In this document: positions 1,097 through 59,154 of the stretch, piece by piece | How positions within the stretch are numbered: position 1 is the first letter of the stretch | Layout of the letters: every line of letters starts with the position of its first letter | Source: a virus | Virus record (IMG/VR): IMGVR_UViG_3300034072_000679 | Coordinates: 1 to 59,154 of that record | Strand: one strand, 5' to 3' | DNA: 59,154 nt | The notes under the pieces: model-generated | The model's input: only the letters and a program-made list of their open reading frames with translations | Databases searched by the model: none | What the model was told of the DNA's origin: nothing | Made by a program: the position numbers and the translations under genes

Positions 1097-1220
1097 CCGG
1101 CTCGATCAGCGGCAGGCCCATCACGATCCGGGCGTAGTTGCGATCCCGCCGGATTGCGTTCAGCCAGACCTCGATCCGGCGGCCCTTGTCGTTGTTGAAG
1201 TTGTACCCTTGCCCGGCCAT
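1026..1220 (-). CDS. Small hypothetical protein
   Basis: Internal ATG at 1220 shares TAATG with the primase stop; 64 codons. Confidence 0.45.
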   Translation of the reverse strand: MAGQGYNFNNDKGRRIEVWLNAIRRDRNYARIVMGLPLIEPVRTEVRRTAERLGHRPTLTSLED

Positions 1221-3709
1221 TACAAGCCCTCCGGGTCGAGGTAGTCGCGGATGGCATCGCCTCGGGCGATCTCGTCCTCGGGCCACGCCCACGGCTTCAT
1301 GGACCAGTACTGGCGCTTCTCGCCGTTGACCTTGAAGCGACCGAGCAACGTGAAGCCGTATTGGCTCAGGAGGCGGCTCAGGGCCTTGCTCCGGGGTGCG
1401 AGAGCATCCGTGCCCATGAAGTGATCGGCGAGCTTGCCGCTGTCCAGCAGGAACTCGCTGTAATCGGGCTGGTCACTGGCCTCCAGCGTATCTTCCAGCG
1501 CCGTGACCTCCTCGGACTTGTTGAGCAGGATCATTTCGCGGCGATAGCTCGACTTCGGCGCACGAGCCTTCGGGTTGAAGTCGGGGCTGATATCCCGCAG
1601 CAAGAAGAACTGCCGGAGCGCACCCGCAAACTGGAGGATCGCGAACAGCCGGTCGTAGTAATGCGGGTTCTGAGACTTGAACAGGTCCAGATCGGTTGAC
1701 CGCTGGAACCGGGTGAAGATCGGGAAGATACGGCTATCCTCCTCACCAACCGGCATAGCGTCCTTCACGTTCGCCGTCATGATGTAGTTCATGGTGTTGA
1801 CGACCGAGTAGAGGTTCGTCTGCATCCGCCGGATCGAGACCTTGTGGTTCGTAATCATCGGCTTGAGGGTGTTGATAGCGTCGAAGCGATTGTTGCCGTG
1901 CAGGCGCACGTCCTCGATGAAGCACACCAGAGCGTTTTCCGCCCACGGGTTGTACTTCTCCTCCAGCGCGTTGCCCGCGATCAGGTTGACGTTGTTCTCG
2001 CCCAGAACGGCGCTCAGGACCGCCGAGAAGAACGACTTACCGTCGCCCTCGGCACCCTGCAACAGGATCGCCCAGTTCACCCGCTGGCCGGGGTACTTGA
2101 CGATGAAGGTCAGGAAATCGAGGAATATTCGACGGTCGTTCTCGTTCGCGATGATATGCTCAAGGTGTCCGAGGAAAATCTGAACGGCCTCCTCCTCGAC
2201 CGGCGAAAGCGGCCCCGGAAGTTCCGGGATTCCGGCTTCCGTGTAGCTGTTCGCGTAGTCGATCCCGTCGTACGAGTAGAGTGTCGGCTGTCCCGGCATG
2301 AACATGCGGTTATAGACGATGGGAATCTGATACAGATTGACGGCAGCATCGACCGGCTGCGTCTCCGGGGTGGACTTGCCTTCCAGCCGCTCGGTCGGAG
2401 TGAGCAGATAGCGGGAGTGGGCCACGTTGAAGGCAGCGCGGGTAAGCTGGGTCCGGTTGACGATGTTGAAAAGCTCGTCGGTCTCCGAGCAGTAGACCCA
2501 CGGCTTGACCCACGGCGGCGCGGAAATCATTTCGGTGTTCTCGTACCGAATCAGTTCGCGAACGAAACCGATTCTCGGGTTCTCCCCGGTGATCCGCTTC
2601 CAGTTCTGCTTGACCTTGCCAAGGATCAGTTCCCGGTTGTGTGCCGGGAGTTCGATCAGCTTGATCTGGGCGCACACAGCCGTAAGCTCGTCCACGGTCG
2701 TCGCACGGTGGATACCGTCGAGGAAGTCCTCGATCAGTTGCTTCGATTGCTGAGCCGCCGCTTCCTTGGAGAGCTTGAGGATGATCCGGCAGGTGATCGG
2801 GATATGCGCTTTGTCGCGGTTGTTGAAGGTCGGCCAGCGGTCCTCCAGAGCCTTGCGATCATAGTTATGCGCCGATTGCGACCAGCGGTCCCAGAGGTCG
2901 AAGCCCTCCTGCCCGCCGTCGTACTGGTGGTACAGCGCCATGCCGATCTGGAACCACGTATCGTGGTCCGTGTTGTCCTCGATCAGGAACAGCCTGCGCT
3001 CAAGCTCCTCGTCGCCGATCTGGACCTTGGGCCGGTAGGCGCTGAAAGGATCGTCGTCGTCATCGTCAATCGGGTTGACCAGACGGGTGATCGCGTTCTT
3101 CGTTTTCTTGGTCCAGCCGTGTTCGAGGAACAGGCTGAGGACCTTTTCCTTGATCTCCTTGGCCTGATCGTGCGTCAGGATCGGGAGTTCCGACCGAGGC
3201 AGGGTCAACGGAGAAGCCCCCAGCCACTTATAGGGCTTGCCCGTATCCGGGTGGACATGCGCCGCGACGAACTGCTGGCCGTCGGCGAGGATTTCGACCT
3301 TGGAGTCCCGGCCCTGACTGTCCAGCCACATGCCGGTATCGACCTTCGGGAACATGCCGCCCTTCTCTTGGCGGTAGACCCAGAGGACCTTGGGCGCGAA
3401 ACCGATTCGCTTGAGCGGAGTGTCGCCTACGACCTTGAGGATAATCTCCTGAACGCGGGCGATCATATCCTCGTCGCGGAGGTCGATGTCGATAGCCGGG
3501 ACCAGCCGGGACTTGATGCCGATCCCGTGACCACCTTTACCATCGGCGATGTAGTCGTGAACGCCTTCGACCGTACCGGCGAGCTTCTGCCAGTTCTTGC
3601 CAGCCGGGCGCTTCTCGCCCGGAATGATCGGGATGACCTCGTAACCGTTCTTGGCGATATCAACGCCAAATTCTTCCATGTAGCGCCGCGCGGCCATAGC
3701 TCCGGTCAC
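1220..3709 (-). CDS. Bifunctional primase-polymerase / SF3 (D5/P4-type) helicase
   Basis: 829 aa; N-terminal prim-pol like region (GYEVIPIIPGEKRP), PriCT-like middle (DTWFQIGMALYH), Walker A GAEGDGKS; ends DPEGL. Confidence 0.85.
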   Translation of the reverse strand: MTGAMAARRYMEEFGVDIAKNGYEVIPIIPGEKRPAGKNWQKLAGTVEGVHDYIADGKGGHGIGIKSRLVPAIDIDLRDEDMIARVQEIILKVVGDTPLKRIGFAPKVLWVYRQEKGGMFPKVDTGMWLDSQGRDSKVEILADGQQFVAAHVHPDTGKPYKWLGASPLTLPRSELPILTHDQAKEIKEKVLSLFLEHGWTKKTKNAITRLVNPIDDDDDDPFSAYRPKVQIGDEELERRLFLIEDNTDHDTWFQIGMALYHQYDGGQEGFDLWDRWSQSAHNYDRKALEDRWPTFNNRDKAHIPITCRIILKLSKEAAAQQSKQLIEDFLDGIHRATTVDELTAVCAQIKLIELPAHNRELILGKVKQNWKRITGENPRIGFVRELIRYENTEMISAPPWVKPWVYCSETDELFNIVNRTQLTRAAFNVAHSRYLLTPTERLEGKSTPETQPVDAAVNLYQIPIVYNRMFMPGQPTLYSYDGIDYANSYTEAGIPELPGPLSPVEEEAVQIFLGHLEHIIANENDRRIFLDFLTFIVKYPGQRVNWAILLQGAEGDGKSFFSAVLSAVLGENNVNLIAGNALEEKYNPWAENALVCFIEDVRLHGNNRFDAINTLKPMITNHKVSIRRMQTNLYSVVNTMNYIMTANVKDAMPVGEEDSRIFPIFTRFQRSTDLDLFKSQNPHYYDRLFAILQFAGALRQFFLLRDISPDFNPKARAPKSSYRREMILLNKSEEVTALEDTLEASDQPDYSEFLLDSGKLADHFMGTDALAPRSKALSRLLSQYGFTLLGRFKVNGEKRQYWSMKPWAWPEDEIARGDAIRDYLDPEGL
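2523..2533. repeat. GAAATSATTTC palindrome copy
   Basis: cGGAAATCATTTCGg; inside primase gene, read T-E-M-I-S on minus strand. Confidence 0.9.
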
Positions 3710-3975
3710 TCCGCGACGAAGATGTCAGGACGCAAAAATTCGCGCGGAAAGGTCTCGCGGCCCAGAAGCTCCTCGATCTTGAGACAGGTGTTGACGGTTA
3801 TGGTGCCGGTCGTGTTGAGTTGCATGTGCAGCATCGACGACGAGCCGCCGAGAGCCTGAGACAGCTTCCCGAGGCTCCCGCTTTTGTCGTGGTAGAACGC
3901 GGCCAGTCTTACGACAAACTCGGCTCTCTGGCCCGGCTCAACCCAAGCCGGGATCGGAAATTTCTCTACTGACAT
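3706..3975 (-). CDS. Helix-turn-helix DNA-binding protein (Cro/CI-like)
   Basis: 89 aa; GSLGKLSQALGGSSSMLHMQLN looks like an HTH; first gene of leftward primase operon. Confidence 0.6.
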   Translation of the reverse strand: MSVEKFPIPAWVEPGQRAEFVVRLAAFYHDKSGSLGKLSQALGGSSSMLHMQLNTTGTITVNTCLKIEELLGRETFPREFLRPDIFVAE

Positions 3976-4137
3976 GGAAAGCCCTTAGCCCTCGATTCGG
4001 CTGCAACGTGCCCGATCTGCTATTTTAACGCAAGTAAGTTTTGCCCTATTGACAGTAAATGGGGGCATGGGGCAAGTACGTGAGGCAACCCGATTCGGGG
4101 AGCGGTCGAATTATCCACAACCGGAGAAGTCAATACC
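3976..4137. promoter_or_regulatory. Divergent intergenic control region
   Basis: Lies between leftward 3975 and rightward 4138 starts; TTGACA at 4049-4054; GGGGCAAG (4069-4076) resembles the 56.4-kb iteron core. Confidence 0.4.
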
Positions 4138-4660: not shown

Positions 4661-5947
4661 ATGTCCGAACACCATCCGATCACTGACCAGATGCTCGCGG
4701 ACAAGAACGCCACGGGCCACTCGATCTTTGGGCCGTCTAGCGCACACCGCTGGATGCGTTGCCCGCGATCCCTTATTGCCGGACATCTGGCAGGCGACAA
4801 CCCGAGCTACTACGCGGCAGAGGGGTCCATAGCGCACTGGCTGGCCGAGGACTGGCTTCTCAATGGCAATCCTTATCGACATTTGGGCACGATCCACGAG
4901 AAAGACGGGTTCGAGATCGAGATCACCGAGGAAATGATTTCCTACGTCGAGGAGTACGTGTCGCTGGTCTCGACGATGCCCGGCAAGCACTACGTCGAAG
5001 TCAAGGTTGATCTTTCCAAATATACCCCTGTCCCCAGCTTCGGCACTTCCGATCACATTAGCGCCGAGTGGGGCATCCTGCGCGTCAAGGACCTCAAGTA
5101 CGGCAAGGTTTGGGTCGAGGCCGAAGATAACGAGCAAGGGCAGGCGTATGCTCTGGGCGCGTTCGAGGAGCTTGACTGGCTCTACAACTTCCAGACCATC
5201 GAGATTCAGATCGTCCAGCCGCGCCGGGATAACTACGATGTCTGGACCATCACCCGAGAGCAACTTCTTGAGTTCGGGGAGCGGTATCGCGAGGCCGCGC
5301 ACAAGGCGTGGGACCCGGAGGCTCCGTACAACCCGGACCCGATTGCTTGCGAGTACTGCCCGGCCCGGTTCGCCTGCCCGGCGCTCGCCGCCGTCAAGGT
5401 CAAGCTCGCGGCAGCCAGCTTCGACGATCTCGATGATACCGAGATGACCCCGTCTCAAGCCGTGGCCGTGATCGAGCAGGAAATGGTTTCCACGCCCCGG
5501 CTCCCTGCTTTCAACGAAGTCCCGGTCGAACGGCTCGCCCAGATTTACGAGTGGCGACCGATTCTGGAGAAGTATTTCCGGGAGATGTACGACTATCTGC
5601 TCAAGAAGCTGGAGATGGATGTCGAAGTTCCGGGGCAAAAACTCGGTATGGGCCGGGCGGGGAACCGTAAATGGACAGACGAGAAGGCCGCTCGTCGTAT
5701 GCTCAGAGGTCGTGGTATTACGGATATCGACATGTACGAGCAAAAATTCATTTCCCCTGCTCAGGCAGTTCAGCTATTAAGGGTTTCCCTTGGGGGCACG
5801 ATCAAGGAGAACGACGCGAGAATTGCGCCGTTCGTCTATCAGCCGCCGGGGAAAGTGACGATGATCCCAGCCAGCGACAAGCGGGAGGGGATTGCGTCAG
5901 CGGTGTCTGCGTTCGATGACGACGTAGATTCCATCGGTAACTCGTGA
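4661..5947 (+). CDS. PD-(D/E)XK nuclease, DUF2800/Cas4-like
   Basis: 428 aa; GTSDH...DLKYGK nuclease motif, C-terminal CEYCPARFACP cysteine cluster; synteny with DUF2815 and PolA. Confidence 0.8.
   Translation: MSEHHPITDQMLADKNATGHSIFGPSSAHRWMRCPRSLIAGHLAGDNPSYYAAEGSIAHWLAEDWLLNGNPYRHLGTIHEKDGFEIEITEEMISYVEEYVSLVSTMPGKHYVEVKVDLSKYTPVPSFGTSDHISAEWGILRVKDLKYGKVWVEAEDNEQGQAYALGAFEELDWLYNFQTIEIQIVQPRRDNYDVWTITREQLLEFGERYREAAHKAWDPEAPYNPDPIACEYCPARFACPALAAVKVKLAAASFDDLDDTEMTPSQAVAVIEQEMVSTPRLPAFNEVPVERLAQIYEWRPILEKYFREMYDYLLKKLEMDVEVPGQKLGMGRAGNRKWTDEKAARRMLRGRGITDIDMYEQKFISPAQAVQLLRVSLGGTIKENDARIAPFVYQPPGKVTMIPASDKREGIASAVSAFDDDVDSIGNS
4931..4941. repeat. GAAATSATTTC palindrome copy
   Basis: gGGAAATGATTTCCt-like context GAGGAAATGATTTCCTAC; read E-E-M-I-S. 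Confidence 0.9.
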
Positions 5948-6688: not shown

Positions 6689-8863
6689 ATGGGACGCACC
6701 CGACTCCACCACGACTACGAAGTCAAGAGTGAAGTCGATCTCCTTGCTCAGGGGATCGACCTTTACTCGTCTCACCAGTCCACCAAGGTTCTCATGTGTT
6801 CGTGGTCTCTCGACGACGAACCGACCCAGCTTTGGGTCCCAGCAGAAGGGGAGCCGATACCCTCCGACCTCAAGGAGGCCCTGCGGGACCCGGAGGTCGA
6901 TAAGATTGCGTTCAACGCTCAGTTCGAGCGGTGGATCGCTTGGCGCGTCCTCAAGCGCCAGATCGGGCTGGAGATCGAGCGCACCTACAAGCCGTGGCGC
7001 TGCTCCATGGCGCTCGCCTACATGTTCTCGTTCATGGGCGGTCTCGACGACATCGCGGACCAGATGTCCCTGCGCCACCGGAAGGACCCCCGTGGCCGGG
7101 CGCTGATCCGAGAGTTCTGTATGCCCAACAAGCCGACGAAGAAGCAGCCCTTCGTCTGGCGCGACCAACACAGCGATCCCGAGGATTGGGAGACGTTCAA
7201 GAAGTACTGTATCCGAGACAATGAATCGGAGAAAGAGCTTTGGTCCAAGCTGATTAAGTTCGGGGTCCCGGACTTCCAGTGGGACCTGTACGAGCTTGAC
7301 CAGATCATCAACGACCGGGGCCTCCCGATTAACCGCCGGTTCGTCGAGAACGCACTGGCAATCGCAGGGCGTCGTAAGACGGAACTCATTTCCGAGCAGA
7401 ACCGGATCACAGGTCTCGCGAACGCCAACAGCGGCGCTCAGCTTCTCCCGTGGCTGATCGACCGGGGCTACCCGTACGAAAACCTCCAGAAACAGAACAT
7501 AGTCAAGCTGCTGGCGGCAGAGGAGGAGGAAGTCCGCAACCCCTCGCCGACCTACGACTACGAGCAGAGAAAGCTCGTACCGAACAGCTACCCGGAGGCG
7601 TACTTCAATCCGCTGGGTCAGGTGGAGGGCAACGCTGTCCTGACGGCAGAGTGCCGGACTGTCCTGCGGATGCGGCAGGCATCGAGCAAGACTTCGACGA
7701 CCAAGTACGAAGCGACCATGGACCGGCTCGCCGACGACGACCGCTTGCGCCACTGTTTCCAGTACGCAGGCGGCTCGCGGACGAACCGCTGGGCCGGTCG
7801 GGCGCTCCAGCCGCAGAACCTCCCCAGAACGCCAAAATGGCTTGAGCCGGAGGACTACATCAACTTTGACCGGCTCGACTACTGCAATAGCCTGATCGAA
7901 GCCGGAGATTACGCCACTCTGGGCGTGTTCGCGGGCGAACAGATGGACGCGGTGGCCGGATGCGTCCGATCCACGATTCAGGCTTCCGAAGGCAAGAAGC
8001 TCGTTGTCAGCGATCTCTCCTCGATTGAGTCGGTGGTGATCTTCTGGATCACGGATTGCGAGCGCGGCTTGAATGTGTTCTGGAGTGGCAAGTGCGCTTA
8101 CAAGGACTTCGCGACCGATCTGTATGGTGTGCCCTATGAGGAAGTCACCAAGGCGCAGAGATCGGGCGCTAAGCCTGCGGTGTTGGGCGCAGGCTATCGT
8201 CTGTCAGGCGGCGAGCTACGAGACGGCGAGAAAACCGGCCTCTGGGCGTACGCCGAGAACATGGGTATCCAGATGACGCGCGAGGAGGCCAACCGCGCCG
8301 TGGATGTGTTCCGGGATACCTACAGCGAGATCAAGAACGCTTGGTACCAGATCGAGGATACCATCGAGCGCGCCATGGCGGCGGGCGGCAAGATCGTGAA
8401 GTGGGGCCATCTGGAGTTCCAGATCGTCAAGCCTTTCCTGCGCGTTGGGCTGCCGTCAGGCCGGTCTATGTGGTACTACCAGCTTCGGGTCGAGAAGTAC
8501 GAGGCAGAGGGTCGCTACGGCCCGTACATGCGGACCAATATCTCGTACATGGGAAAGTGCCAGATCACGCAGCAATGGAAGCGTATCGAGAGCCACGGCG
8601 GCAAGTTCATCGAGAACTTCGTGCAGGCCCTCGCCCGCGACATCCTCGGTTTCGGGATGCTGGCGGCGCACGAGGCAGGCTACTACATCTGCGGGCATGT
8701 TCACGACGAAATCATTTCCGAGGAGGACGAGGACGACGAGGTCCACAACCTCGACGGCTTGCGCCATTGCATGACTAAAGCTATCCAAGAGAAATACGCC
8801 TTCCTGCGTACCATGCCGCTCAACGCTGCCGGGTATGAGGGTCGAGTTTACAAGAAGGATTGA
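6689..8863 (+). CDS. Family A DNA polymerase with N-terminal 3'-5' exonuclease region
   Basis: 724 aa; DLSSIESVV (motif A), RSGAKPAVLGAGY (motif B), HVHDEI (motif C), QPQNLPR. Confidence 0.9.
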   Translation: MGRTRLHHDYEVKSEVDLLAQGIDLYSSHQSTKVLMCSWSLDDEPTQLWVPAEGEPIPSDLKEALRDPEVDKIAFNAQFERWIAWRVLKRQIGLEIERTYKPWRCSMALAYMFSFMGGLDDIADQMSLRHRKDPRGRALIREFCMPNKPTKKQPFVWRDQHSDPEDWETFKKYCIRDNESEKELWSKLIKFGVPDFQWDLYELDQIINDRGLPINRRFVENALAIAGRRKTELISEQNRITGLANANSGAQLLPWLIDRGYPYENLQKQNIVKLLAAEEEEVRNPSPTYDYEQRKLVPNSYPEAYFNPLGQVEGNAVLTAECRTVLRMRQASSKTSTTKYEATMDRLADDDRLRHCFQYAGGSRTNRWAGRALQPQNLPRTPKWLEPEDYINFDRLDYCNSLIEAGDYATLGVFAGEQMDAVAGCVRSTIQASEGKKLVVSDLSSIESVVIFWITDCERGLNVFWSGKCAYKDFATDLYGVPYEEVTKAQRSGAKPAVLGAGYRLSGGELRDGEKTGLWAYAENMGIQMTREEANRAVDVFRDTYSEIKNAWYQIEDTIERAMAAGGKIVKWGHLEFQIVKPFLRVGLPSGRSMWYYQLRVEKYEAEGRYGPYMRTNISYMGKCQITQQWKRIESHGGKFIENFVQALARDILGFGMLAAHEAGYYICGHVHDEIISEEDEDDEVHNLDGLRHCMTKAIQEKYAFLRTMPLNAAGYEGRVYKKD
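8708..8718. repeat. GAAATSATTTC palindrome copy
   Basis: GACGAAATCATTTCCGAG in PolA, directly after motif C; read D-E-I-I-S. Confidence 0.9.
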
Positions 8864-8865
8864 CG

Positions 8866-9675
8866 ATGCGCCTGTTCTACCACCCTGAAAGCGATAGCCT
8901 GTTCCTCTCTGAGCCGGGAGACTGGCAGAACTCGGCAGACGGCGCGCTCTCCGAAGATGTCAGCGATGACCCGAAGTTCCTTAATCTGGCTACGCTGGAG
9001 GATATCGACGTGAGCCTGATCGAGCCGCTGGAAAGCAGGCCCGCCAAGGCCGTCGGGATGGCGGGAGCGATCACCGAGGCGATGAAGAAGTGGGCGCGCA
9101 AGCCTGCTGATCTCTACCCCACGCCAGTCGATTGCACCTACAGCCTGTTGCCGCATATCGCCGATCTGGTCCCCCCTGACGCGAAAGTGTGGGAGCCTGC
9201 TTGCGCGGACGGCCAGATGGTCAGGCCGCTTGAGCAGTTCGGCTACCGCGTCACGGCTACCGATCTGCGGCCTGACGTGACGGGCGGGGTTGGCGGGATC
9301 GACTTCCTTGATCCCGTCTCTCCTTACCACGATCAGTCGTACGATCTCGTGGCGACCAATCCTCCCTTCGTGGCCGCTGACGCTTTTATCCGGCAAGCTC
9401 TGGAGCAGGCCCCGGTCGTAGTCATGCTCCTCAAGGCGCAGTACTGGAACACGAGGAATCGGAAGAAGCTGTTCCGTGAGACCAAGCCTTACAAGGAGCT
9501 TAACCTGACGTGGCGGCCCGCTTTCCTTGAGAAGGAGCGCGGCAAGTCACCTCTCATGGACTGCATGTGGGTTGTCTGGGTTCGCGGCCACCAAGGGCCT
9601 TGCACTACGGAGATGATTGACCGGCTGCTGGAGTGCCCGGTCAACGTCGGCGCGATGGACATGGGCGGCCTGTGA
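8866..9675 (+). CDS. SAM-dependent DNA methyltransferase (NPPF type), orphan
   Basis: VWEPACADGQ (motif I-like) and LVATNPPF (motif IV); ATG at 8866 after AGAAGGA; ends AMDMGGL. Confidence 0.7.
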   Translation: MRLFYHPESDSLFLSEPGDWQNSADGALSEDVSDDPKFLNLATLEDIDVSLIEPLESRPAKAVGMAGAITEAMKKWARKPADLYPTPVDCTYSLLPHIADLVPPDAKVWEPACADGQMVRPLEQFGYRVTATDLRPDVTGGVGGIDFLDPVSPYHDQSYDLVATNPPFVAADAFIRQALEQAPVVVMLLKAQYWNTRNRKKLFRETKPYKELNLTWRPAFLEKERGKSPLMDCMWVVWVRGHQGPCTTEMIDRLLECPVNVGAMDMGGL

Positions 9676-12383: not shown

Positions 12384-13064
12384 GTGGCTTCGGCGGCGCG
12401 AAAGCAGGCTGATTACGCGGATACGGCTCGGGCAGACGACTCGGAGACCTCGGCCATCATCTACGAGGGCGCGAGCGTCCGGCAGCTTGCCTTGATGTTC
12501 AAGATGGACCCCAAGGTCGTGACCAGTAAGGTCTCCAGCCTCGTGCCGGTCGGTCGCCGCCGGGGCACCCCGATCTACTCGATCCCGGAGGCCGCTTCCC
12601 GGCTCGTGAAGCCCGGCTACGACATCGAGCGGGTCATCATGAACATGAACCACTCGGACTTGCCTCCGATGCTCCAGAACGCTTTCTGGAGCGCCCAGAA
12701 AACCCGTGCGTCGTACGAGGAGATGATTGGTGATCTCTGGCGCACCAGCCGCGTCGTGCGGCTGATCTCTGTCCTGTTCAACAGCGTCCGGATGATCTTG
12801 CTCCTGCTCCCGGACACTATCGAGCGTGAAGCCGGGCTGAGCCGGGAGCAAAAGGCCGTGGTCCGGCGCGTCGTCGAAGGGGCGCTGGTCGAAGGCCGCA
12901 AGGCAATCATGAAGGAGTTTGAAGGTTATGGCGACGGCCCCGAGTACGACGCAGGATGCGGACCTGACGGCCCTCTCCTCGTTCGTGAACACGAGCCGGT
13001 TGACGACCGAGGAACTGGAGTTCCTAGCGCCTCGGAAGCCGAGGACGAGTATAACGGGCTATAG
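12384..13064 (+). CDS. terS: Terminase small subunit (DUF1441/Nu1-like, tentative)
   Basis: GTG directly after upstream TAG; lies immediately upstream of GpA-type TerL; ends EAEDEYNGL. Confidence 0.55.
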   Translation: MASAARKQADYADTARADDSETSAIIYEGASVRQLALMFKMDPKVVTSKVSSLVPVGRRRGTPIYSIPEAASRLVKPGYDIERVIMNMNHSDLPPMLQNAFWSAQKTRASYEEMIGDLWRTSRVVRLISVLFNSVRMILLLLPDTIEREAGLSREQKAVVRRVVEGALVEGRKAIMKEFEGYGDGPEYDAGCGPDGPLLVREHEPVDDRGTGVPSASEAEDEYNGL

Positions 13065-15126
13065 GGACCTCGGAGATGTTGTCTGCCAGACGGTCGAGCA
13101 AGTCTGGCTCGATCCCGATCACCGGAAGCCGTCTGAGTGGGCAGAGCAAGAGCGGTACCTGAATAACGCGCCGGGCTACGTGGGGCCTTGGCGCTTTTCC
13201 TACGCGCCCTATCTCCGTGAGCCGCTGGACAAGCTGGTCGATCCTGATCTCGATGCAGTGATCTTCGTCGGCCCGGCCCAGTGCGGCAAGACCGAGCTTA
13301 TCCTGAACTGGGCGGGCTACTCGATCCGCGCCGAGCCGTCGGACATGACGATCTTCTCGCCGACCCAAGGCAATGCCCGCGACTTCTCGAACCGGCGTAT
13401 CGACCGCCTGCACCGCGACTCGGAACTGGTAGGCAAGGAGTTGCTGGAGAGCCGAGACGCGGACAATAAGTTCGACAAGCACTACAAGAACGGGACGATC
13501 CTCGGTCTCGCGTGGCCGACCAAGGCCGAGCTTGCCGGTAAGCCGATCCCCCGGATCGCGCTGACCGACCGCGACCGCATGGAGGACGACATCGACGGCG
13601 AAGGCGATCCCTTCGATCTGGCGACCAAGCGCACGACCTCGTACGGCTCCTTCGCCATGACGCTCTGCGAGTCCTCGCCCAGCCGGGAGATCACTGACTT
13701 CCGCTATGTCCCCAAGACTCCGCACGAGGCCCCGCCGACTACCGGCATCCTCGCGCTCTACAACCGAGGCGACCGTCGGCGCTGGTACATCCCCTGCGGA
13801 CGCTGCGGGGAGTATTTCGAGCCTCGGTTCGAGCTTCTGGAGTGGGACCCCTTTGCGAACGGCCTTGACGCGGCTGAGACGGTCCGGCTCAAGTGCCCGG
13901 TGTGCGAAGGCCACATCCACCCGGACGAACGCTTCACGCTGGCCCAGAACGGTCTCTGGCTGCCCGACGGCTGCCGGATCGAGCATGGCCGGGTGGTAGG
14001 CACTCCCCGTCGCTCCAAGTACGCGAGCTACTGGCTGGAGGGCTGCTCGGCGGCCTTCACGAATTGGCCTAAGCTCGTCGCGGCCTACCTGACAGCGGAG
14101 GAGGAGTTCGATTCGACGCTCAATGAGGAGCCGCTGCGGAAGTTCTACAACACCGACTTGGGCCGTCCGTACAAGCCGAAGGCGGCTGCCGCAGAGCGTA
14201 CGCCCGAGGACATGATGTCGAGAGCAGAGGACTTCGGGCGCAACGCGGAGACCGGCGAGATCGAAATCATTTCCGAGACGGCTTTCCTGATCGCCACGGT
14301 TGACGTGCAGAAGAACATGTTCGTCGTACAGGTCTGGAGCGTAATCCCCGGTGAGCCGTACGATCTGGCGCTTGTCGAGCGGTTCGACATCCGTAAGTCC
14401 CTTCGCCGGGACGACGACGGAGATGTTCAGTGGGTCAAGCCGGGCACGTATCTAGAGGACTGGGACCTCTTGATCGACCAAGTCATCAAGCGGACATACC
14501 CGATGCAAGGCCGAGAGGAGCGCATGGCGATTCGGATCGTCGGTTGCGACTCTGGCGGTAAGGCGGGCGTTACCGCCAACGCTTACGCGTTCTGGCGCTC
14601 GATCAAGGCTCTCGGGCTTGGAAACCGTTTCCTTTTGCTCAAGGGTACCGGCACCCCGAACGCGCCGCAGGTTCGCGAGACATTCCCGGACGCGAGCGAC
14701 CGCAAGAACCTCGCCACGGCCAGAGGGGATGTCCCGGTCTGGCAGTTGAACTCGAACCTATTGAAGAACGAAGCCAACAACCGTCTTGCGTCCGAAGTTC
14801 CATGTAAAGGGATGGTTCGCATCCCGAAGTGGAACCCGGCTTGGCTGTTTAAGGAGTTCTGTTCTGAAATCTTCAAGGAGAAGGGCTGGGTAAAAGCGCC
14901 CGGTGTACGTAATAACGAAGCGTGGGACTTGCTGTACTATGCTATTGGTCTGTGCATGACTAAGTACATCCGTTGCGAGCGCCCGAGTTTTTGGCAGAAT
15001 GTGCCGGTCTGGGCAGACCCGCAGGACCCTAATAACCCGTTTATTGTCAAGCCCGGCACCGAACCGTTTGCAGAGCGCGCAAAAACTCGTTATGACCTCA
15101 CCGAAATCGCTTCCAAGATCGCTTGA
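12928..15126 (+). CDS. terL: Terminase large subunit, lambda GpA family
   Basis: ATG 12928 ten nt after GAAGGAG; SEWAEQERYL, Walker A GPAQCGKTE; 137-nt overlap with terS. Confidence 0.85.
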   Translation: MATAPSTTQDADLTALSSFVNTSRLTTEELEFLAPRKPRTSITGYRDLGDVVCQTVEQVWLDPDHRKPSEWAEQERYLNNAPGYVGPWRFSYAPYLREPLDKLVDPDLDAVIFVGPAQCGKTELILNWAGYSIRAEPSDMTIFSPTQGNARDFSNRRIDRLHRDSELVGKELLESRDADNKFDKHYKNGTILGLAWPTKAELAGKPIPRIALTDRDRMEDDIDGEGDPFDLATKRTTSYGSFAMTLCESSPSREITDFRYVPKTPHEAPPTTGILALYNRGDRRRWYIPCGRCGEYFEPRFELLEWDPFANGLDAAETVRLKCPVCEGHIHPDERFTLAQNGLWLPDGCRIEHGRVVGTPRRSKYASYWLEGCSAAFTNWPKLVAAYLTAEEEFDSTLNEEPLRKFYNTDLGRPYKPKAAAAERTPEDMMSRAEDFGRNAETGEIEIISETAFLIATVDVQKNMFVVQVWSVIPGEPYDLALVERFDIRKSLRRDDDGDVQWVKPGTYLEDWDLLIDQVIKRTYPMQGREERMAIRIVGCDSGGKAGVTANAYAFWRSIKALGLGNRFLLLKGTGTPNAPQVRETFPDASDRKNLATARGDVPVWQLNSNLLKNEANNRLASEVPCKGMVRIPKWNPAWLFKEFCSEIFKEKGWVKAPGVRNNEAWDLLYYAIGLCMTKYIRCERPSFWQNVPVWADPQDPNNPFIVKPGTEPFAERAKTRYDLTEIASKIA
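14263..14273. repeat. GAAATSATTTC palindrome copy
   Basis: ATCGAAATCATTTCCGAG in terL; read I-E-I-I-S. Confidence 0.9.
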
Positions 15127-20714: not shown

Positions 20715-21125
20715 ATGGTGTCTCTCGCAGACATCAAGGCGAAAGCACGGCGAGCCATCCACGGACGGCTCGCCGTTTCCGCGTCTCTCGTGGACGTGGC
20801 ACACCCGAGCGGCCTGATCTTCGCGGACGACTATGAGGGCGAGACCCTGACCGTCCGGTACCACAACAAGCTGGATCGCGCGGGCGGACTGAATGACGAC
20901 TACGCCGAGATCATCGACGGGATCGACCGGCTCGTTTTCCACGACGACAACGTGGCCGCAGTTTCCGCCGCTCTGGTCGCCAACGGGGAAGCCCCTCTGG
21001 CGCTCGCTCGGGGCGCTCAGGTAACGATCCCGGATTACAAGGGCCTCACCTTCGCTCTGGACAGCCAGCAGCCTCCAGACGGCCCCGGAGAGGTCGTGTG
21101 GGTCGTGGCCCGCAAGCGGGGCTAG
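20715..21125 (+). CDS. Head-tail connector/adaptor (by position)
   Basis: 136 aa ORF between head and tail modules. Confidence 0.5.
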   Translation: MVSLADIKAKARRAIHGRLAVSASLVDVAHPSGLIFADDYEGETLTVRYHNKLDRAGGLNDDYAEIIDGIDRLVFHDDNVAAVSAALVANGEAPLALARGAQVTIPDYKGLTFALDSQQPPDGPGEVVWVVARKRG

Positions 21126-39819: not shown

Positions 39820-41064
39820 TCAGAGGCCGCCCATGCCGTCATCCGCCGATTCCGGGGCGCTGGTGGCTTCCGGCGGGGTAGCCGGGGGTTCGGTAGCCGG
39901 AGCGGGCTTCTTCGCGTTCTGGGGCTTCTGAGCGGGCTGCTTGGGCTTGGCCTTCTCAGGGGTCTTGCCCTTCGGGGCGGCCTTGCCCTTGGCAGCAGGC
40001 TTCTTGGCAGCCGCCTCGGCGAGCAGCTTCTTCTCCGCTTCGCGCTTGGCAGCGGCCTCGGCCTTCGCCTTCTCGGTAGCCGCCTTCTTGGCAGCGGCTT
40101 CCTCGGCCTTGGCCTTCTTCTCCGCTTCGCGCTTGGCAGCGGCCTCGGCCTTCGCCTTCTCGGCGGCAGCCTTGGCGGCCTCGGCTTCGCGATCCACGAC
40201 ATGCACCGTGATCTCGATCTTGCCGTCCTCGGCCAGCTTGTCGCCGTCGCCGATCTGGACCTCGGCCCGGATCGCCTTCGCCATGTTCTTGAGGATGTCG
40301 CCCATCACGTCGCCCGAACCGAAGTTCATGGTGATCGCGACCTTCTTCATCTTCGGCCCGGTCGGCGCGCTCGCGGTCGTCTTGGGGGTGGCCTTCGCCT
40401 TGCCCTGCTCCTCGGCCTTCTTGATGCGCGCGGTGATCTCGGCAGCCGCGTCCTTGGTGCCGTGCTTACGAACCAGCTTGACGGCTTCGGCCCCGGCGAT
40501 CTTGCCACTGGCGACGGCCTTCTTGACGGCCTGATTCGCGTCGGCGAGGACGAACAGGTTATCGACGTGGCGGGTCGTGCGGCCCAGTGCCGTCGCGATC
40601 TCGTCCTTCGACATCCCGAGACCCTGCATACGACGGACGACCGCCGCAAGCTCGACCATGTTCAGGCGCTCGCCCGCGTTACCGTGGGCAAGGTGGATGG
40701 TCAGGTCGCGCACCGTCGCGCCGTCCTTGGCCCACGCGACCGGCAGGCCGTCGGGGAACTCGGCACCATCGAGCAGAGCCGCCTTGGCCGCGTCGAAACG
40801 GTGTTCGCCGTCGTAGATGTAGACGGTGTCGTCGCCGGGCAGCATGGTCACGGCGAACGGCTTGTCGTCGAAAAAGCCGTTCGCGACGATGCTTTCGGCG
40901 ATCCCGGCGACACGCTCGCTGTAGTCGGCATCCTTGACGCGGGTGTTGAAGCCCGGCAGCACGGCGAGGTTGTCGAGCGCCACGCGCGTCGGCGCGTTTT
41001 CGGGGCGCACGAACGTCATGGTCGTGTCGAACTTGTCAGCGGGCAGATTGATTGCGGTGGTCAT
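39820..41064 (-). CDS. ParB/sulfiredoxin-like N-terminal domain protein with Lys/Ala/Glu-rich repeat tail
   Basis: LPGFNTRVKD, IYDGEHRFDAAKAA (GxxR box), central HTH-like region, AEKAKAEAAAKREAEKK repeats; ends ADDGMGGL. Confidence 0.75.
   Translation of the reverse strand: MTTAINLPADKFDTTMTFVRPENAPTRVALDNLAVLPGFNTRVKDADYSERVAGIAESIVANGFFDDKPFAVTMLPGDDTVYIYDGEHRFDAAKAALLDGAEFPDGLPVAWAKDGATVRDLTIHLAHGNAGERLNMVELAAVVRRMQGLGMSKDEIATALGRTTRHVDNLFVLADANQAVKKAVASGKIAGAEAVKLVRKHGTKDAAAEITARIKKAEEQGKAKATPKTTASAPTGPKMKKVAITMNFGSGDVMGDILKNMAKAIRAEVQIGDGDKLAEDGKIEITVHVVDREAEAAKAAAEKAKAEAAAKREAEKKAKAEEAAAKKAATEKAKAEAAAKREAEKKLLAEAAAKKPAAKGKAAPKGKTPEKAKPKQPAQKPQNAKKPAPATEPPATPPEATSAPESADDGMGGL
40027..40163. 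repeat. 50-bp exact direct repeat, two copies 87 bp apart, inside the ParB-like gene
   Basis: CTTCTTCTCCGCTTCGCGCTTGGCAGCGGCCTCGGCCTTCGCCTTCTCGG at 40027-40076 and 40114-40163. Confidence 0.85.
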
Positions 41065-52961: not shown

Positions 52962-53631
52962 AACCCCCTCAGCCCTTGACGCGGCTTGCGCGCTTGACCC
53001 GTGCAAGACTCACAGGGCGTTCCGTTTCTTGCCCGAGTATATGCCCGCCGGGTTCCGTTGCAGCGATTGCGGACAGGTGAAACCGTTCAAGCTGGGGGGC
53101 GGTACCGGGTACGCCCGGACAGGCGAGGGCGAGGGCGAGGCGTTCGCCTGTTACGATTGCGCGAGCCTCAGGGAGCGGGCGGCCATGATGGCGCGCGGCG
53201 AGGCTTGGCTGTACCTTACGGGCCTTCCCTGCGGCGGGTTGCCCGCCTCGGGCGAGCCGCTGCGAATCACGGATTGGCCCGGCGGCCTATCGTTTCCCGT
53301 GTCCGCCTATTGGACGGGCCGCCATAACTGGGGCGGGCGTGTCCATTTTGTGCGCTTTACGGGTCCGGACGGTGGCGAGTGGAGCGGGCGCAATCTGGGG
53401 GACTCTCAGATATGCCGAGTCCGCCGGTTGAAAGCGCAAGGGCGCGGGCGGGTGGCCGTAAGCTATCTGCACCCGGACGCGGCCCGCCCTGCAATCCTCG
53501 CCCGGTTTCCGGGCGTTCCTGAGGCTGAATCGTGGATTGCCAGACAGGCGCAACGGGACCCGGCGGGCGTTGCGGCTGGGCACTATGGAATCGACGCGCC
53601 CGAGGCCCTGCTAAACAAGGGGGGCCGCTGA
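52948..53631 (+). CDS. Hypothetical Cys-rich protein
   Basis: ATG after CCAAGGAGTC; CSDCG...CYDC. Confidence 0.55.
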   Translation: MRVFETPSALDAACALDPCKTHRAFRFLPEYMPAGFRCSDCGQVKPFKLGGGTGYARTGEGEGEAFACYDCASLRERAAMMARGEAWLYLTGLPCGGLPASGEPLRITDWPGGLSFPVSAYWTGRHNWGGRVHFVRFTGPDGGEWSGRNLGDSQICRVRRLKAQGRGRVAVSYLHPDAARPAILARFPGVPEAESWIARQAQRDPAGVAAGHYGIDAPEALLNKGGR

Positions 53632-53632
53632 T

Positions 53633-53863
53633 ATGGCCCGCCTTGACCCATGGGCGGCCCGCGCAATCCTTACGGTGGCGGGTTGCAGCATCGACTCGGA
53701 TTTCCACGCCCTCAGCACGGCAAAGGTTGAGGCCCTGCGGGTGCAGGCGGACGCGCGAGGCTATCGGAAACCGAAAAACGCAAACGGCTCGCGCCTGCGG
53801 TATTTTCACGCCTATTGCGTGAGACAGGCGCGAAAAACCCTCAGCAAGGAGTCCGGGCAATGA
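53633..53863 (+). CDS. Small hypothetical protein
   Basis: 76 aa ORF. Confidence 0.5.
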   Translation: MARLDPWAARAILTVAGCSIDSDFHALSTAKVEALRVQADARGYRKPKNANGSRLRYFHAYCVRQARKTLSKESGQ

Positions 53864-54132
53864 ACAGCGGACAGATTCACAGGTTCCGGGATTCCGTGGC
53901 GGCCTATATCGGCACGGGCGCAACAGTCTACATGACACCCGGCGAGGCGCGGGCCATGGCGCGGGCGTTGAACCGGGCCGCCCGTTCCGTGGAGCGGGAA
54001 CCGTTCGCCCGTTCCGCAGGCGTAACGACTCAACTCACCTTTGCCGATTGGCATAGGTCCGGCGAATCCATGCCGGAAATTGCCCGCGATGAAACCGGGC
54101 GAGCCGTCCGCCGGAAAAGGGGGGCCGCCTGA
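53860..54132 (+). CDS. Small hypothetical protein
   Basis: ATGA overlap with upstream stop; AAGGAGTC upstream. Confidence 0.5.
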   Translation: MNSGQIHRFRDSVAAYIGTGATVYMTPGEARAMARALNRAARSVEREPFARSAGVTTQLTFADWHRSGESMPEIARDETGRAVRRKRGAA

Positions 54133-54377
54133 TGGCCGTGGAAATCATTTCCGGACGTAAGGTCCGGGTTTCACCCGAGGGCGTGGCGAGCTTTAACCGG
54201 GCGTGGCCCTGTTCAACCCTCAGGGCGAGCCGCGCATATTGGTTTGAGTTCGATTCGCGCGGCGATCTAATCGACACGGATTGTCCGGAATCGGATGATG
54301 GCCCGGCGGCCCTCGCCCTTGCTGAGGATTGCAAGGCGTACCTGTTCAACGGAACGCGGCCTATTTGGGCCGCCTGA
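54132..54377 (+). CDS. Small hypothetical protein
   Basis: 81 aa ORF, ATG overlaps upstream TGA. Confidence 0.5.
   Translation: MAVEIISGRKVRVSPEGVASFNRAWPCSTLRASRAYWFEFDSRGDLIDTDCPESDDGPAALALAEDCKAYLFNGTRPIWAA
54141..54151. repeat. GAAATSATTTC palindrome copy
   Basis: GTGGAAATCATTTCCGGA; read V-E-I-I-S; the only perfect copy inside the island. Confidence 0.9.
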
Positions 54378-55753: not shown

Positions 55754-55775
55754 GGCCCGGACAATCGGGCGCAAT

Positions 55776-55811
55776 GGGGCCGCTGGGGAAACCCGGCGGC
55801 CCTTTTCTTTT
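55776..55811 (+). terminator. Rho-independent terminator, near copy of the 55168 hairpin
   Basis: GGGGCCGCTGGG-GAAA-CCCGGCGGCCC then TTTTCTTTT. Confidence 0.75.
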
Positions 55812-56054
55812 GCCCGCAAACAGGGCGAGCCGTAGGGCCGCCTGTAGGGCCTCAGGATTGCACGAAAATGATTCAGCTAGGGGCATGGCGGGCCGCCCTG
55901 AATCATTACGCAAAGGGCCTCAGAATGGCCGCTAGGCCCTGATTCATTTGCCAAGGGGGTTTTAGGTACTACGGGCGAGCGGGCCGCCGGGCGGTGGGGG
56001 CGCTGAGCCGCTTTTCTTCTGACATTCCGGATTTCGCGTATGACCTCGCTATTG

Positions 56055-56065
56055 GAAATGATTTC
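56055..56065. repeat. GAAATSATTTC palindrome copy
   Basis: TTGGAAATGATTTCCGTG; non-coding hub. Confidence 0.9.
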
Positions 56066-56097
56066 CGTGATCCTGCTCGACCGATATCCCGGATCGC

Positions 56098-56108
56098 GAA
56101 ATCATTTC
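56098..56108. repeat. GAAATSATTTC palindrome copy
   Basis: CGCGAAATCATTTCCAGA; 43 bp from the previous copy. Confidence 0.9.
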
Positions 56109-56403
56109 CAGACTTGCCCCGGATATGCGCTGAGATCGTGCAGGCAGAGGGACCCTATAGGCGATTCCGGGTTCCGAGATAGGTTCATGAATCAGAAACC
56201 TATTTCAGTTGCATTTTGCAACCGGGGGCAAGATCGAACGAAAACCCCTACTTCACCCTGCCAGAAAAAATTTTCACGTTTGTTAGGTATATCGGACTTA
56301 ACGATTTGAAATTTTTCTCTACATGTGGACTTCAGATTTTATGGTTTTCTTGCCCCTTTAGGGGGTTATATCGAAAAAAGTACAGGAAATCAGGATTTTG
56401 CTA

Positions 56404-56548
56404 GGGGCAAGATCAGGGGCAAGATCAGGGGCAAGATTGATCTTGCCCCTCGCGGGTCGGACAATCTGATTCATTTTCCCCCTCCCAGTGGCCGCTGAAT
56501 CAGGGGCACGATTGATCTTGCCCCTGATCTTGCCCCTGATCTTGCCCC
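56404..56548. repeat. Iteron array GGGGCAAGATCA arranged as a 46-bp inverted repeat pair
   Basis: Left arm 56404-56449 has three direct plus one inverted unit. Right arm 56503-56548 has one direct (GGGGCACGAT) plus three inverted units. Extra units at 56225-56236 and 56348-56356. Confidence 0.9.
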
Positions 56549-56655
56549 CGGTTGCATTTTGAAACCTATAAGTGATTCAGACATAACGGGGCTTGATTCT
56601 GATTCAGAAATTCGCTAGGGCCGGAAAGTCGAAGCCGAACGAGTGAGTCGAGTTC

Positions 56656-58921: not shown

Positions 58922-59154
58922 TGGCGGTCAACGATAAGCTCGGCACGGTTGAGGAAATGCGGGCGTGGGCGCAGTCGATCATCGACTCGCGGCCTCCGGA
59001 CTTCACTATCGAGGATGGTGACAAGCAGCCGTACATGCACCGCTGGTTCGTGGTGCCCCGGAACCCGGCGGGCGGCTGCTACATCCACCAGATAGTCCGT
59101 AGCGACAAGGACGTGCATCACGATCACCCTTGGGACAACACCAGCTATGTTCTC
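58921..59154 (+). CDS. 5' part of the junction-spanning gene (continues at 128..394 of the circle)
   Basis: ATG 58921 (TAATG with upstream stop); no stop before the window end; in frame with ORF 8..394. Confidence 0.7.
   Translation, partial: MAVNDKLGTVEEMRAWAQSIIDSRPPDFTIEDGDKQPYMHRWFVVPRNPAGGCYIHQIVRSDKDVHHDHPWDNTSYVL
59028..59154. repeat. Terminal direct repeat, second copy of 1-127
   Basis: Identical by eye to bases 1-127. Confidence 0.95.

Follow-up and report, generated by a model that had tools for sequence, protein, structure and literature searches.

The DNA analysed here (the window) is the whole 59,154-nucleotide stretch of IMG/VR record IMGVR_UViG_3300034072_000679, and the element in question is a 902-bp gene-free region at 55754–56655, hereafter the hub. 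An earlier note made from the sequence alone had correctly recognised it as the largest gene-free stretch of the window (the next largest is 452 bp) and had interpreted it as a replication origin. Our comparison with related phages pointed to a composite element, in which the cohesive-end site (cos) of a Chi-like phage is combined with a conserved origin-like module of short repeats (iterons) and AT-rich DNA and with a predicted promoter, so that the hub would serve both end joining and control. We assign this overall reading a probability of roughly 60%. The origin interpretation was strengthened by the comparison as far as the iteron and AT-rich module is concerned, but the hub is not an origin alone, as the cos site, a terminator, and a promoter with its leader had been overlooked. 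None of the small open reading frames (ORFs) in the hub had a coding signature, that is, raised GC content at third codon positions (GC3) or third-position variability. The ORF at 56040–56309 has a conserved ATG, yet it was rejected as a gene because it showed neither GC3 bias nor third-position variation.

The window represents a complete phage genome from a circular assembly. An exact 127-bp repeat is common to both ends (1–127 and 59028–59154), giving a true length of 59,027 bp, and the junction falls inside a gene. The record is a circle opened at an arbitrary point within that gene; therefore, a cos site in the interior of the window is expected. The genome encodes an exonuclease, a single-strand-binding protein, a family A DNA polymerase, a methyltransferase, a helicase and both terminase subunits. 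The 829-aa primase-polymerase/helicase (1220–3709, minus strand; Prim-Pol, PriCT-2 and DUF5906 domains), which is presumed to be the replication enzyme loaded at the hub, shared 31%–41% identity with those of Sphingomonas phage Carli, Erythrobacter phage R22L, Burkholderia phages BcepNazgul (Nazgul) and AH2, Xylella phage Salvo and Serratia phage JS26. Given this identity and a replication and terminase gene order that is the same as in Salmonella phage Chi, the phage was assigned to the Chi-like (Casjensviridae-type) siphophages. Its host is probably a sphingomonad-type bacterium. A nucleotide search with the hub against 50,697 phage records returned zero matches, and an Rfam scan of the whole window returned zero families. 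GC skew climbed almost monotonically across the window and located no origin.

The cos site and its flanks

The 12 nt at 55997–56008 (plus strand), GGGGCGCTGAGC, are close to certain, from sequence comparison, to be the 5′ cohesive end (cosN) of a Chi-like phage and would form the left end of the virion chromosome. The sequence occurs as a single exact copy in the window and matches the known ends of Chi and Nazgul at 10 of 12 positions and those of AH2, Carli and the viral contig L018 at 11 of 12. Primer extension on Chi identified its ends as 12-base extensions, 5′-GGTGCGCAGAGC, with over 10 kb between the left cos end and the terminase genes (PMC4342425); the same end was confirmed in Siskin (PMC6498227), and in JS26, another member of the family, the ends are likewise defined and agree with cos packaging (preprint 10.64898/2025.12.19.695335). 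Sequence records agree with these data. The cos overhang is annotated as AGGGCGCAGAGC in the BcepNazgul record, the AH2 record begins with the reverse complement of AGGGCGCTGAGC, and the Carli record begins with GGGGCGCGGAGC, its syntenic gene-free gap of ca. 780 bp straddling the record ends. Furthermore, three independent viral contigs (L004, L013 and L015) terminate at GGGGCGCTGAGC, exactly or within one base, and a fourth, more distant contig, L018, terminates at AGGGCGCTGAGC. When the far end of a 58,928-bp contig was sought, the gene upstream of the hub was found not to be conserved.

The genomic setting is also that of the family. Chi, Siskin, Utah, BcepNazgul, AH2 and JS26 share with this phage a near-identical 12-nt 5′ overhang, GG(G/T)GCGC(A/T)GAGC, in a gene-free region of ca. 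1 kb, with an operon ending toward cos on one side and the primase side on the other, terminase genes more than 10 kb away, and iterons with an AT-rich core 200–550 bp inside the left end. Here, the small and large terminase genes (12384–13064 and 12919–15126, plus strand; together 12384–15126) lie ca. 15 kb from cos, likewise in Chi, and their product would be the enzyme that cuts it. The phage differs from the family in its iterons, which are unrelated (GGGGCAAGATC here versus GGTTACAA or AGGTCCGAAT), and in the strict mirroring and 12-bp period of its arrays. In addition, the hub and the primase gene are separated by an insertion of small genes (ca. 4 kb, from 56656 through the window ends to 1096), whereas the end of the primase gene is at most ca. 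940 bp from cos in Chi, Nazgul, AH2 and L018. Cos is the only function of the hub with experimental precedent in relatives, and the earlier note had missed it.

Both flanks of the site are conserved. In an alignment of the window with L003 and L005, the left flank (55955–55996, plus strand) includes TTTTAGGTACTA at 55960–55971 and GGGCGGTG directly before the cut. The right flank (56009–56050, plus strand; CGC..GACATTCCGGATTTCGCGTATGACCTCGC) is strongly conserved and among the most conserved non-coding blocks of the six-genome alignment described below; it may be a terminase recognition region comparable to cosB. Phage lambda likewise has 12-nt 5′ cohesive ends with flanking recognition sequences. 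In a comparison with lambda cosB, the conserved block extended over 56009–56110, with palindromes at +58 and +101 (both of a type dispersed genome-wide), and no integration host factor (IHF) consensus was found; the lack of an IHF site in this hub is a difference from lambda. To the left of cos, three TGAWTCA boxes (55869, 55899 and 55940) lie in longer imperfect repeats (55846–55958) and are also kept by L003 and L005; the corresponding place in Chi is occupied by four 22-bp repeats. The boxes are possibly sites for terminase or an accessory factor. The R22L record PQ394074 (L020, L022 and L023) was opened inside an iteron array and contains no cos-like GGGGCGCNGAGC motif anywhere; GC-rich GGCTGGCG repeats occupy the region upstream of its arrays instead.

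The iteron and AT-rich module

The origin-like module occupies 56208–56566, 230–550 bp to the right of cos. The features that the earlier note had listed in the hub were nearly all recovered, far above chance, with only small errors of coordinate. All seven exact copies of GGGGCAAGATC in the window lie within 56225–56548, and a weight matrix identified ten iterons, all within 56224–56549, most of them arranged with a 12-bp period as two mirrored arrays. The left array (56403–56450) consists of three direct AGGGGCAAGATC units at the 12-bp period followed by one inverted unit, a 3+1 layout also found in L003, L004, L005, L013, L015 and L028, and the right array (56502–56549) is its mirror, with one direct and three inverted units. 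The inverted arms that had been described as 46 bp long are indeed present but span 47 nt each (56404–56450 and 56502–56548), are 94% complementary and stand 51 nt apart. Two outlying iterons had also been noted correctly, an exact copy at 56225 and a minus-strand copy with two mismatches at 56346–56356. Iteron-like matches at 750 and 768 lie inside an HNH endonuclease gene, where they encode GGKTRGRGKT, and were rejected.

Between the first iteron and the arrays lies the AT-rich core (56252–56351), with a conserved tract CAGAAAAAATTT. At 33% GC, it is the lowest 100-bp window of the genome (next lowest, 43%), and it is a candidate DNA-unwinding element; the earlier note had placed an AT-rich segment at about 56240–56400. 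It is followed by the conserved sequence TTCTTGCCCCTTTAGGGGGTTAT (56345–56370, minus strand), in which the reversed degenerate iteron (56346–56356) is joined to the dyad CCCC-TTTA-GGGG (56353–56364). The 51-bp spacer between the arrays (56451–56501) contains TCTGATTCATTTT and GTGGCCG. The latter, at 56488–56494, is centred between the arrays and is kept in R22L (L020, ca. 5795–5805) and Carli (L001, 359–369) despite their different iterons, which points to recognition by a conserved factor, or to a start point. Phased repeats limited to one locus and an adjacent AT-rich element, both found here, are features of iteron-type origins.

Some parts of the module are peculiar to this genome. The region 56208–56235 combines a hairpin with the first iteron (56225–56235); the iteron is conserved in relatives and the hairpin is window-specific. 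The hairpin had been described as a perfect structure with 7-bp arms; it is present as GTTGCA-TTT-TGCAAC at 56208–56222, but its arms are 6 bp, the preceding base being A. The related copy that had been noted, GGTTGCATTTTGAAACC, was confirmed at 56550–56566. Neither copy was conserved among the close relatives in the hub alignment, and the GTTGCATTTTGCAAC hairpins are specific to this genome. Here alone, a 28-nt inverted repeat of hairpin plus iteron (56208–56235 versus 56538–56565) brackets the iteron module, its right copy sitting in an insertion of ca. 22 bp that is not present in relatives.

The architecture of the hub was compared in an alignment of the window with five close relatives, whose primases are 68%–83% identical to that of the window, and in two more relatives from a metagenome scan. 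Conserved at the left were cos, both of its flanks and a palindrome at +58. Conservation in the module covered the single iteron, the CAGAAAAAATTT tract, the TCTTGCCCCTTTAGGGGGGTAT block, both arrays (3+1 and 1+3) and the spacer carrying TCTGATTCATTTT and GTGGCCG, and at the right it included a promoter form CTTGAC-N17-xTAxxx and the leader before the next start codon. The module is kept in six close relatives, five of which have all nine or ten iterons. Beyond this clade, the layout persists with other repeats. Gene-free DNA in Chi amounts to 543 bp at the right and 613 bp at the left of the genome, with eight GGTTACAA repeats in both orientations around an AT-rich core at 270–400. Nazgul has about ten AGGTCCGAAT repeats around such a core, L018 has GTGATCCGAA and GGTGTGCC repeats with an equivalent core, and R22L has 4+4 mirrored GGAACCGATTA repeats with an 11–12-bp period and GTGGCCG in the spacer, followed by CTTGAC. 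Apart from Carli, all Chi-like phages examined have iterons and an AT-rich core beside cos. An old architecture with a fast-evolving repeat sequence, as seen in these comparisons, is what would be expected of an initiator and its sites.

A candidate for the protein that binds the iterons is gp3, an 89-aa Cro-like helix-turn-helix protein (3706–3975, minus strand) whose stop codon overlaps the primase start and which, being encoded outside the hub, would act in trans. Its homologue profile matches PDB entry 3bd1, ‘Cro protein’ (E = 0.0017). The uniform GGGGCAAGATC iterons recur in a single relative, the contig behind L005 and L012, whereas the others carry GGGGCA(A/C)G(A/T)T(C/T), and gp3 of L012 is 92% identical to that of the window versus 65%–73% for the relatives with variant iterons. 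The genes neighbouring gp3 show no preference for L012, or the opposite one. The last 129 residues of the primase also follow this split (96% for L012, 81%–84% for the others). In L028, however, which has the looser iterons, gp3 is ca. 50% identical to any other and yet keeps the recognition-helix motif LHMALKS of the looser group, whereas the primase C-terminus resembles that of the window. Since the gp3 helix tracks the iteron subtype and the primase C-terminus does so only in part, gp3 is the better candidate. Its recognition helices, LHMQLNTTGT and LHMALKSKGG, can be set beside the iterons GGGGCAAGATC and GGGGCACGTT, respectively. These correspondences weakly suggest that gp3 may read the iterons.

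The further suggestion that one protein binds both the hub and the divergent promoter region at 3976–4137 was not supported. The weak GGGGCAAG copy at 4069 on which it rested scores 11.5 bits, within or below the range of chance matches inside genes elsewhere in the window, and the counterparts of this region in Chi, Nazgul and R22L lack the iterons of those phages. Between the gp3–primase operon and the exonuclease–polymerase operon, the region contains a different set of strongly conserved boxes, TTACTGTCAAT, CTTACTTGCGTTAA and CCGAATCG, which are unrelated to the hub iterons.

The proposed replication origin and rival readings

The iteron and AT-rich part is best read, on the comparative sequence evidence, as a replication origin, with about an even chance of this being correct. 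After injection, the cohesive ends would anneal and be ligated, rebuilding the hub. A phage protein, for which the Cro-like gp3 made together with the primase-helicase is the candidate, could then coat the iterons, open the AT-rich core and allow the primase-helicase to be loaded. Late in infection, terminase would cut concatemers at cos, leaving the 12-nt 5′ overhang, and the conserved flanks presumably guide the enzyme. Several known systems offer parallels. The lambda origin likewise has repeated initiator sites beside an AT-rich stretch, where the initiator recruits the helicase; however, cos and ori of lambda are ca. 39 kb apart and ori lies within the O gene, whereas here the two are 230 bp apart in non-coding DNA, and the replicative enzyme is a primase-polymerase fused to a viral-type (SF3-like) helicase, whereas lambda relies on the host DnaB. 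The ori/crr system of satellite phage P4 uses a primase-helicase of the P4 family, to which the enzyme of this phage shows a weak TIGR01613 match, below the family cut-off. The C-terminal domain of the P4 alpha protein binds short repeats at the P4 origin; in this phage, by contrast, a separate Cro-like protein is the better candidate for the repeat reader, and the evidence for the primase C-terminus is inconsistent. In the origins of SV40 and papillomaviruses, helicases of the same broad class are assembled as two head-to-head rings by mirrored short repeats that lie next to an AT-rich tract. The likeness of this hub to them is one of layout only, without homology, and its arrays are longer (4+4 units) and 51 bp apart.

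Several observations weigh against the proposed reading. In Carli, no clear iteron arrays accompany the AT-rich core and the promoter. The virion ends were measured in Chi, whereas those of this phage are deduced by comparison. The covariation between gp3 and the iterons amounts essentially to one split, between two subtypes that differ only in degeneracy, and membership of the Cro family of transcription regulators fits a regulatory role equally well. A search of the hub for DnaA, IHF and CtrA consensus sequences (the DnaA box with one wildcard position) found none, and in the literature no paper was found on the origin or iterons of Chi-like phages. Promoter-like sequences are discernible beside the arrays and within the AT-rich core, although AT-rich DNA yields such matches by chance.

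The main rival of the origin is a regulatory role, which we consider unlikely, although it deserves to be taken seriously. The iteron arrays would then be transcription operators, through which gp3 or another regulator switches the promoter at 56592 and any promoters of the AT-rich core from early to middle expression, the core itself being promoter DNA. Such a role accords with the Cro-like nature of gp3 and its tracking of the iteron subtype, with the position of the right array, which ends 25–45 bp before the conserved −35 element (the last R22L repeat directly adjoins it), and with promoter-like hexamers that inspection of the alignment showed within the AT-rich core as well as on the outer side of the left array. 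However, iterons and an AT-rich core are also present in Nazgul and L018, whose hubs contain no gene start. The gene sets on either side of the Nazgul hub are both transcribed in its direction, and the repeats there are therefore not controlling a coding operon. A Cro-like autoregulator would also be expected to have its own sites in the gp3–primase promoter region, and none were found in the equivalent regions of Chi, Nazgul and R22L. Nor did a search of the AT-rich core of Chi reveal a strong sigma-70 or consensus promoter. It is less probable still that the hub in its entirety, with the arrays, serves as an extended packaging site whose repeats are bound by the small terminase, in the manner of the R sites of lambda cosB or the pac boxes of SPP1. 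The arrays are always on the same side of cos, within ca. 200–550 bp, in Chi, Nazgul, L018 and this clade, and with the terminase genes so distant, recognition must depend on sites in cis. Lambda cosB, however, lies within ca. 170 bp of the cut, and the equivalent space here is already taken by the separate, more conserved block at 56009–56110. Moreover, the iterons vary between clades, whereas the cos overhang and the small-terminase family (DUF1441) are constant, and R22L keeps its mirrored arrays in a record without a cos-like motif, an indication that the arrays are separable from cos. The gene orientation in Nazgul and the arrays of R22L together indicate that the repeats are not merely operators or packaging sites.

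Two further explanations appear far less credible. One, along the lines of the earlier note, would be a pure origin of the Caulobacter Cori type, controlled by CcrM methylation of GANTC sites, with the zinc-finger product of gene 56656 or gp3 (gp3706-3975) binding both the hub and 3976–4137; we regard this as very improbable. The GANTC cluster itself is present, with 11 sites in the hub versus 3.5 expected (p about 6e-4), a 3-fold enrichment against a genome-wide depletion (214 versus 323 expected; 0 of 100 shuffles as low). As the note had observed, TGAWTCA palindromes containing GANTC are concentrated here: eight of the 11 copies in the window lie in the hub (55869, 55899, 55940, 56188, 56467, 56496, 56573 and 56600), where local shuffles predict 0.09. 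The truly enriched sequence is a longer palindrome common to the boxes, CWGANTCWG, whose central base is free among the relatives and Carli. Another 902-bp stretch (53387–54288), however, has 12 GANTC sites; CtrA boxes (TTAA-N7-TTAA) and DnaA boxes are absent from the hub, cos lies in the middle of it, and the site at 4069 is chance-like. Gene 56656 is missing from this position in Chi, Nazgul and L018, and its product therefore cannot be the conserved hub-binding factor. The least probable of the readings considered is a partition centromere of the kind found in plasmid R1, with the phage kept as a plasmid prophage. The two arrays of 12-bp repeats do resemble parC, which has two clusters of 11–12-bp direct repeats, and the genome encodes a ParB-like protein; but no ParA, ParM, integrase or repressor was seen among the genes scanned, a search with gp56656 found no relative in 185,579 bacterial genomes and so revealed neither a prophage nor a plasmid form, and Carli has been described as lytic (PMC10385605).

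Predicted transcription signals and the dispersed palindrome

On its left, the hub begins with a predicted intrinsic terminator of the upstream rightward operon (55776–55813, plus strand; terminator scan), composed of a 12-bp stem with 10 G–C pairs and then TTTTCTTTT. It is conserved in L005, and Chi has an equivalent after its last gene. On the right, a predicted sigma-70-type promoter (56592–56620, plus strand) comprises a −35 element CTTGAT (56592–56597), a 17-nt spacer with CTGATTCAG and a −10 element CTAGGG (56615–56620). The form CTTGAC-N17-xTAxxx is in register in L003, L004, L005, L013, L029 and Carli, consistent with 56592–56620 being the promoter of the gene 56656 operon; a scan for E. 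coli-consensus promoters found none in this hub or in that of Chi. The nearly invariant leader GTCGAAGCCGAACGAGTGAGTCGA (56621–56655, plus strand) precedes the start codon of gene 56656 and is more conserved than the first codons of the gene. The gene product has two CxxCGG motifs, and its family matches were to unnamed phage groups only. Elsewhere in the window, ARAGORN predicted an 88-nt tRNA-Asp at 20894–20981 (minus strand), which lies opposite the strand of the structural genes, overlaps an ORF and may be a false positive. A DNA methyltransferase gene (8860–9675) has an NPPF motif suggesting N6-adenine methylation, which could bear on the GANTC boxes or on the palindrome described next.

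A 13-bp palindrome, GGAAATSATTTCC, is dispersed over the genome in 34 copies (up to two mismatches; ca. one expected), or ca. one per 1.7 kb, for example at 4930, 10429, 23430, 30586, 44276, 46422, 49675, 54140, 56054 and 56973. The pair 43 bp apart that had been reported in the hub does exist, at 56054 (exact) and 56097 (one mismatch), but it is not hub-specific, as it represents two of these 34 copies. The first, GGAAATGATTTCC (56054–56066), lies 58 bp from the cos end in all close relatives, and a Carli copy lies 68 bp from its end; the second, CGAAATCATTTCC (56097–56109), is degenerate in L004 and L013. The palindrome is enriched between genes and at gene starts, with 14 of the 34 copies outside gene calls although 88% of the genome is taken up by genes. 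Of the 40 copies in Carli, 30 are perfect GGAAA-N3-TTTCC, and R22L has 33 copies of the variant GGAAGTNACTTCC; none were found in Chi or in the first 50 kb of AH2. The copies hold their positions in close relatives (94% identical versus 82% for the flanks), and the central base swaps between C and G, altering the encoded amino acid while the motif is kept, which indicates selection on the DNA itself.

The window also encodes a 414-aa ParB/KorB-like protein (39820–41064, minus strand) with a ParB-type helix-turn-helix and a long Ala/Lys/Glu/Pro-rich tail, homologues of which occur in Carli, R22L, AH2 and many lytic phages. Palindrome and protein occur together in the window, Carli and R22L; AH2 has the protein only. 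AH2, which carries the protein without the palindrome in its first 50 kb, is a counter-example to the idea that the protein reads the palindrome, and the idea was set aside as unproven. The protein had no sequence match in PDB, and a comparison of recognition helices was uninformative. In form, the sites resemble KorB operators of IncP plasmids and the stoperators of cluster A mycobacteriophages, namely 13-bp sites in tens of copies on a genome of ca. 60 kb, within and between genes. They also have the 6-1-6 palindromic form in common with KorB sites, G or C being the central base, and a ParB/KorB-like protein is encoded in the window. Stoperators, by contrast, are asymmetric and oriented. A literature search on the palindrome sequence found nothing relevant. 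We tentatively suggest, as a doubtful but interesting possibility, that the GGAAATSATTTCC sites beside cos are part of a genome-wide system common to a clade of sphingomonad phages, in which they would be loading sites for a phage clamp or coating protein, such as that encoded at 39820–41064, that organises, silences or protects the chromosome. To our knowledge, no such chromosome-wide system has been described for lytic phages. The dispersed palindrome is a less ordinary observation than the hub and merits its own study.

The layout of the hub is common to the whole phage family and, in this respect, mostly ordinary. Nevertheless, the cos site at 55997–56008 fixes the true ends and the orientation of this genome and of its metagenomic relatives. 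The family-wide module would provide a concrete candidate for the replication origin of Chi-like phages, and the Cro-like protein a candidate for its initiator.

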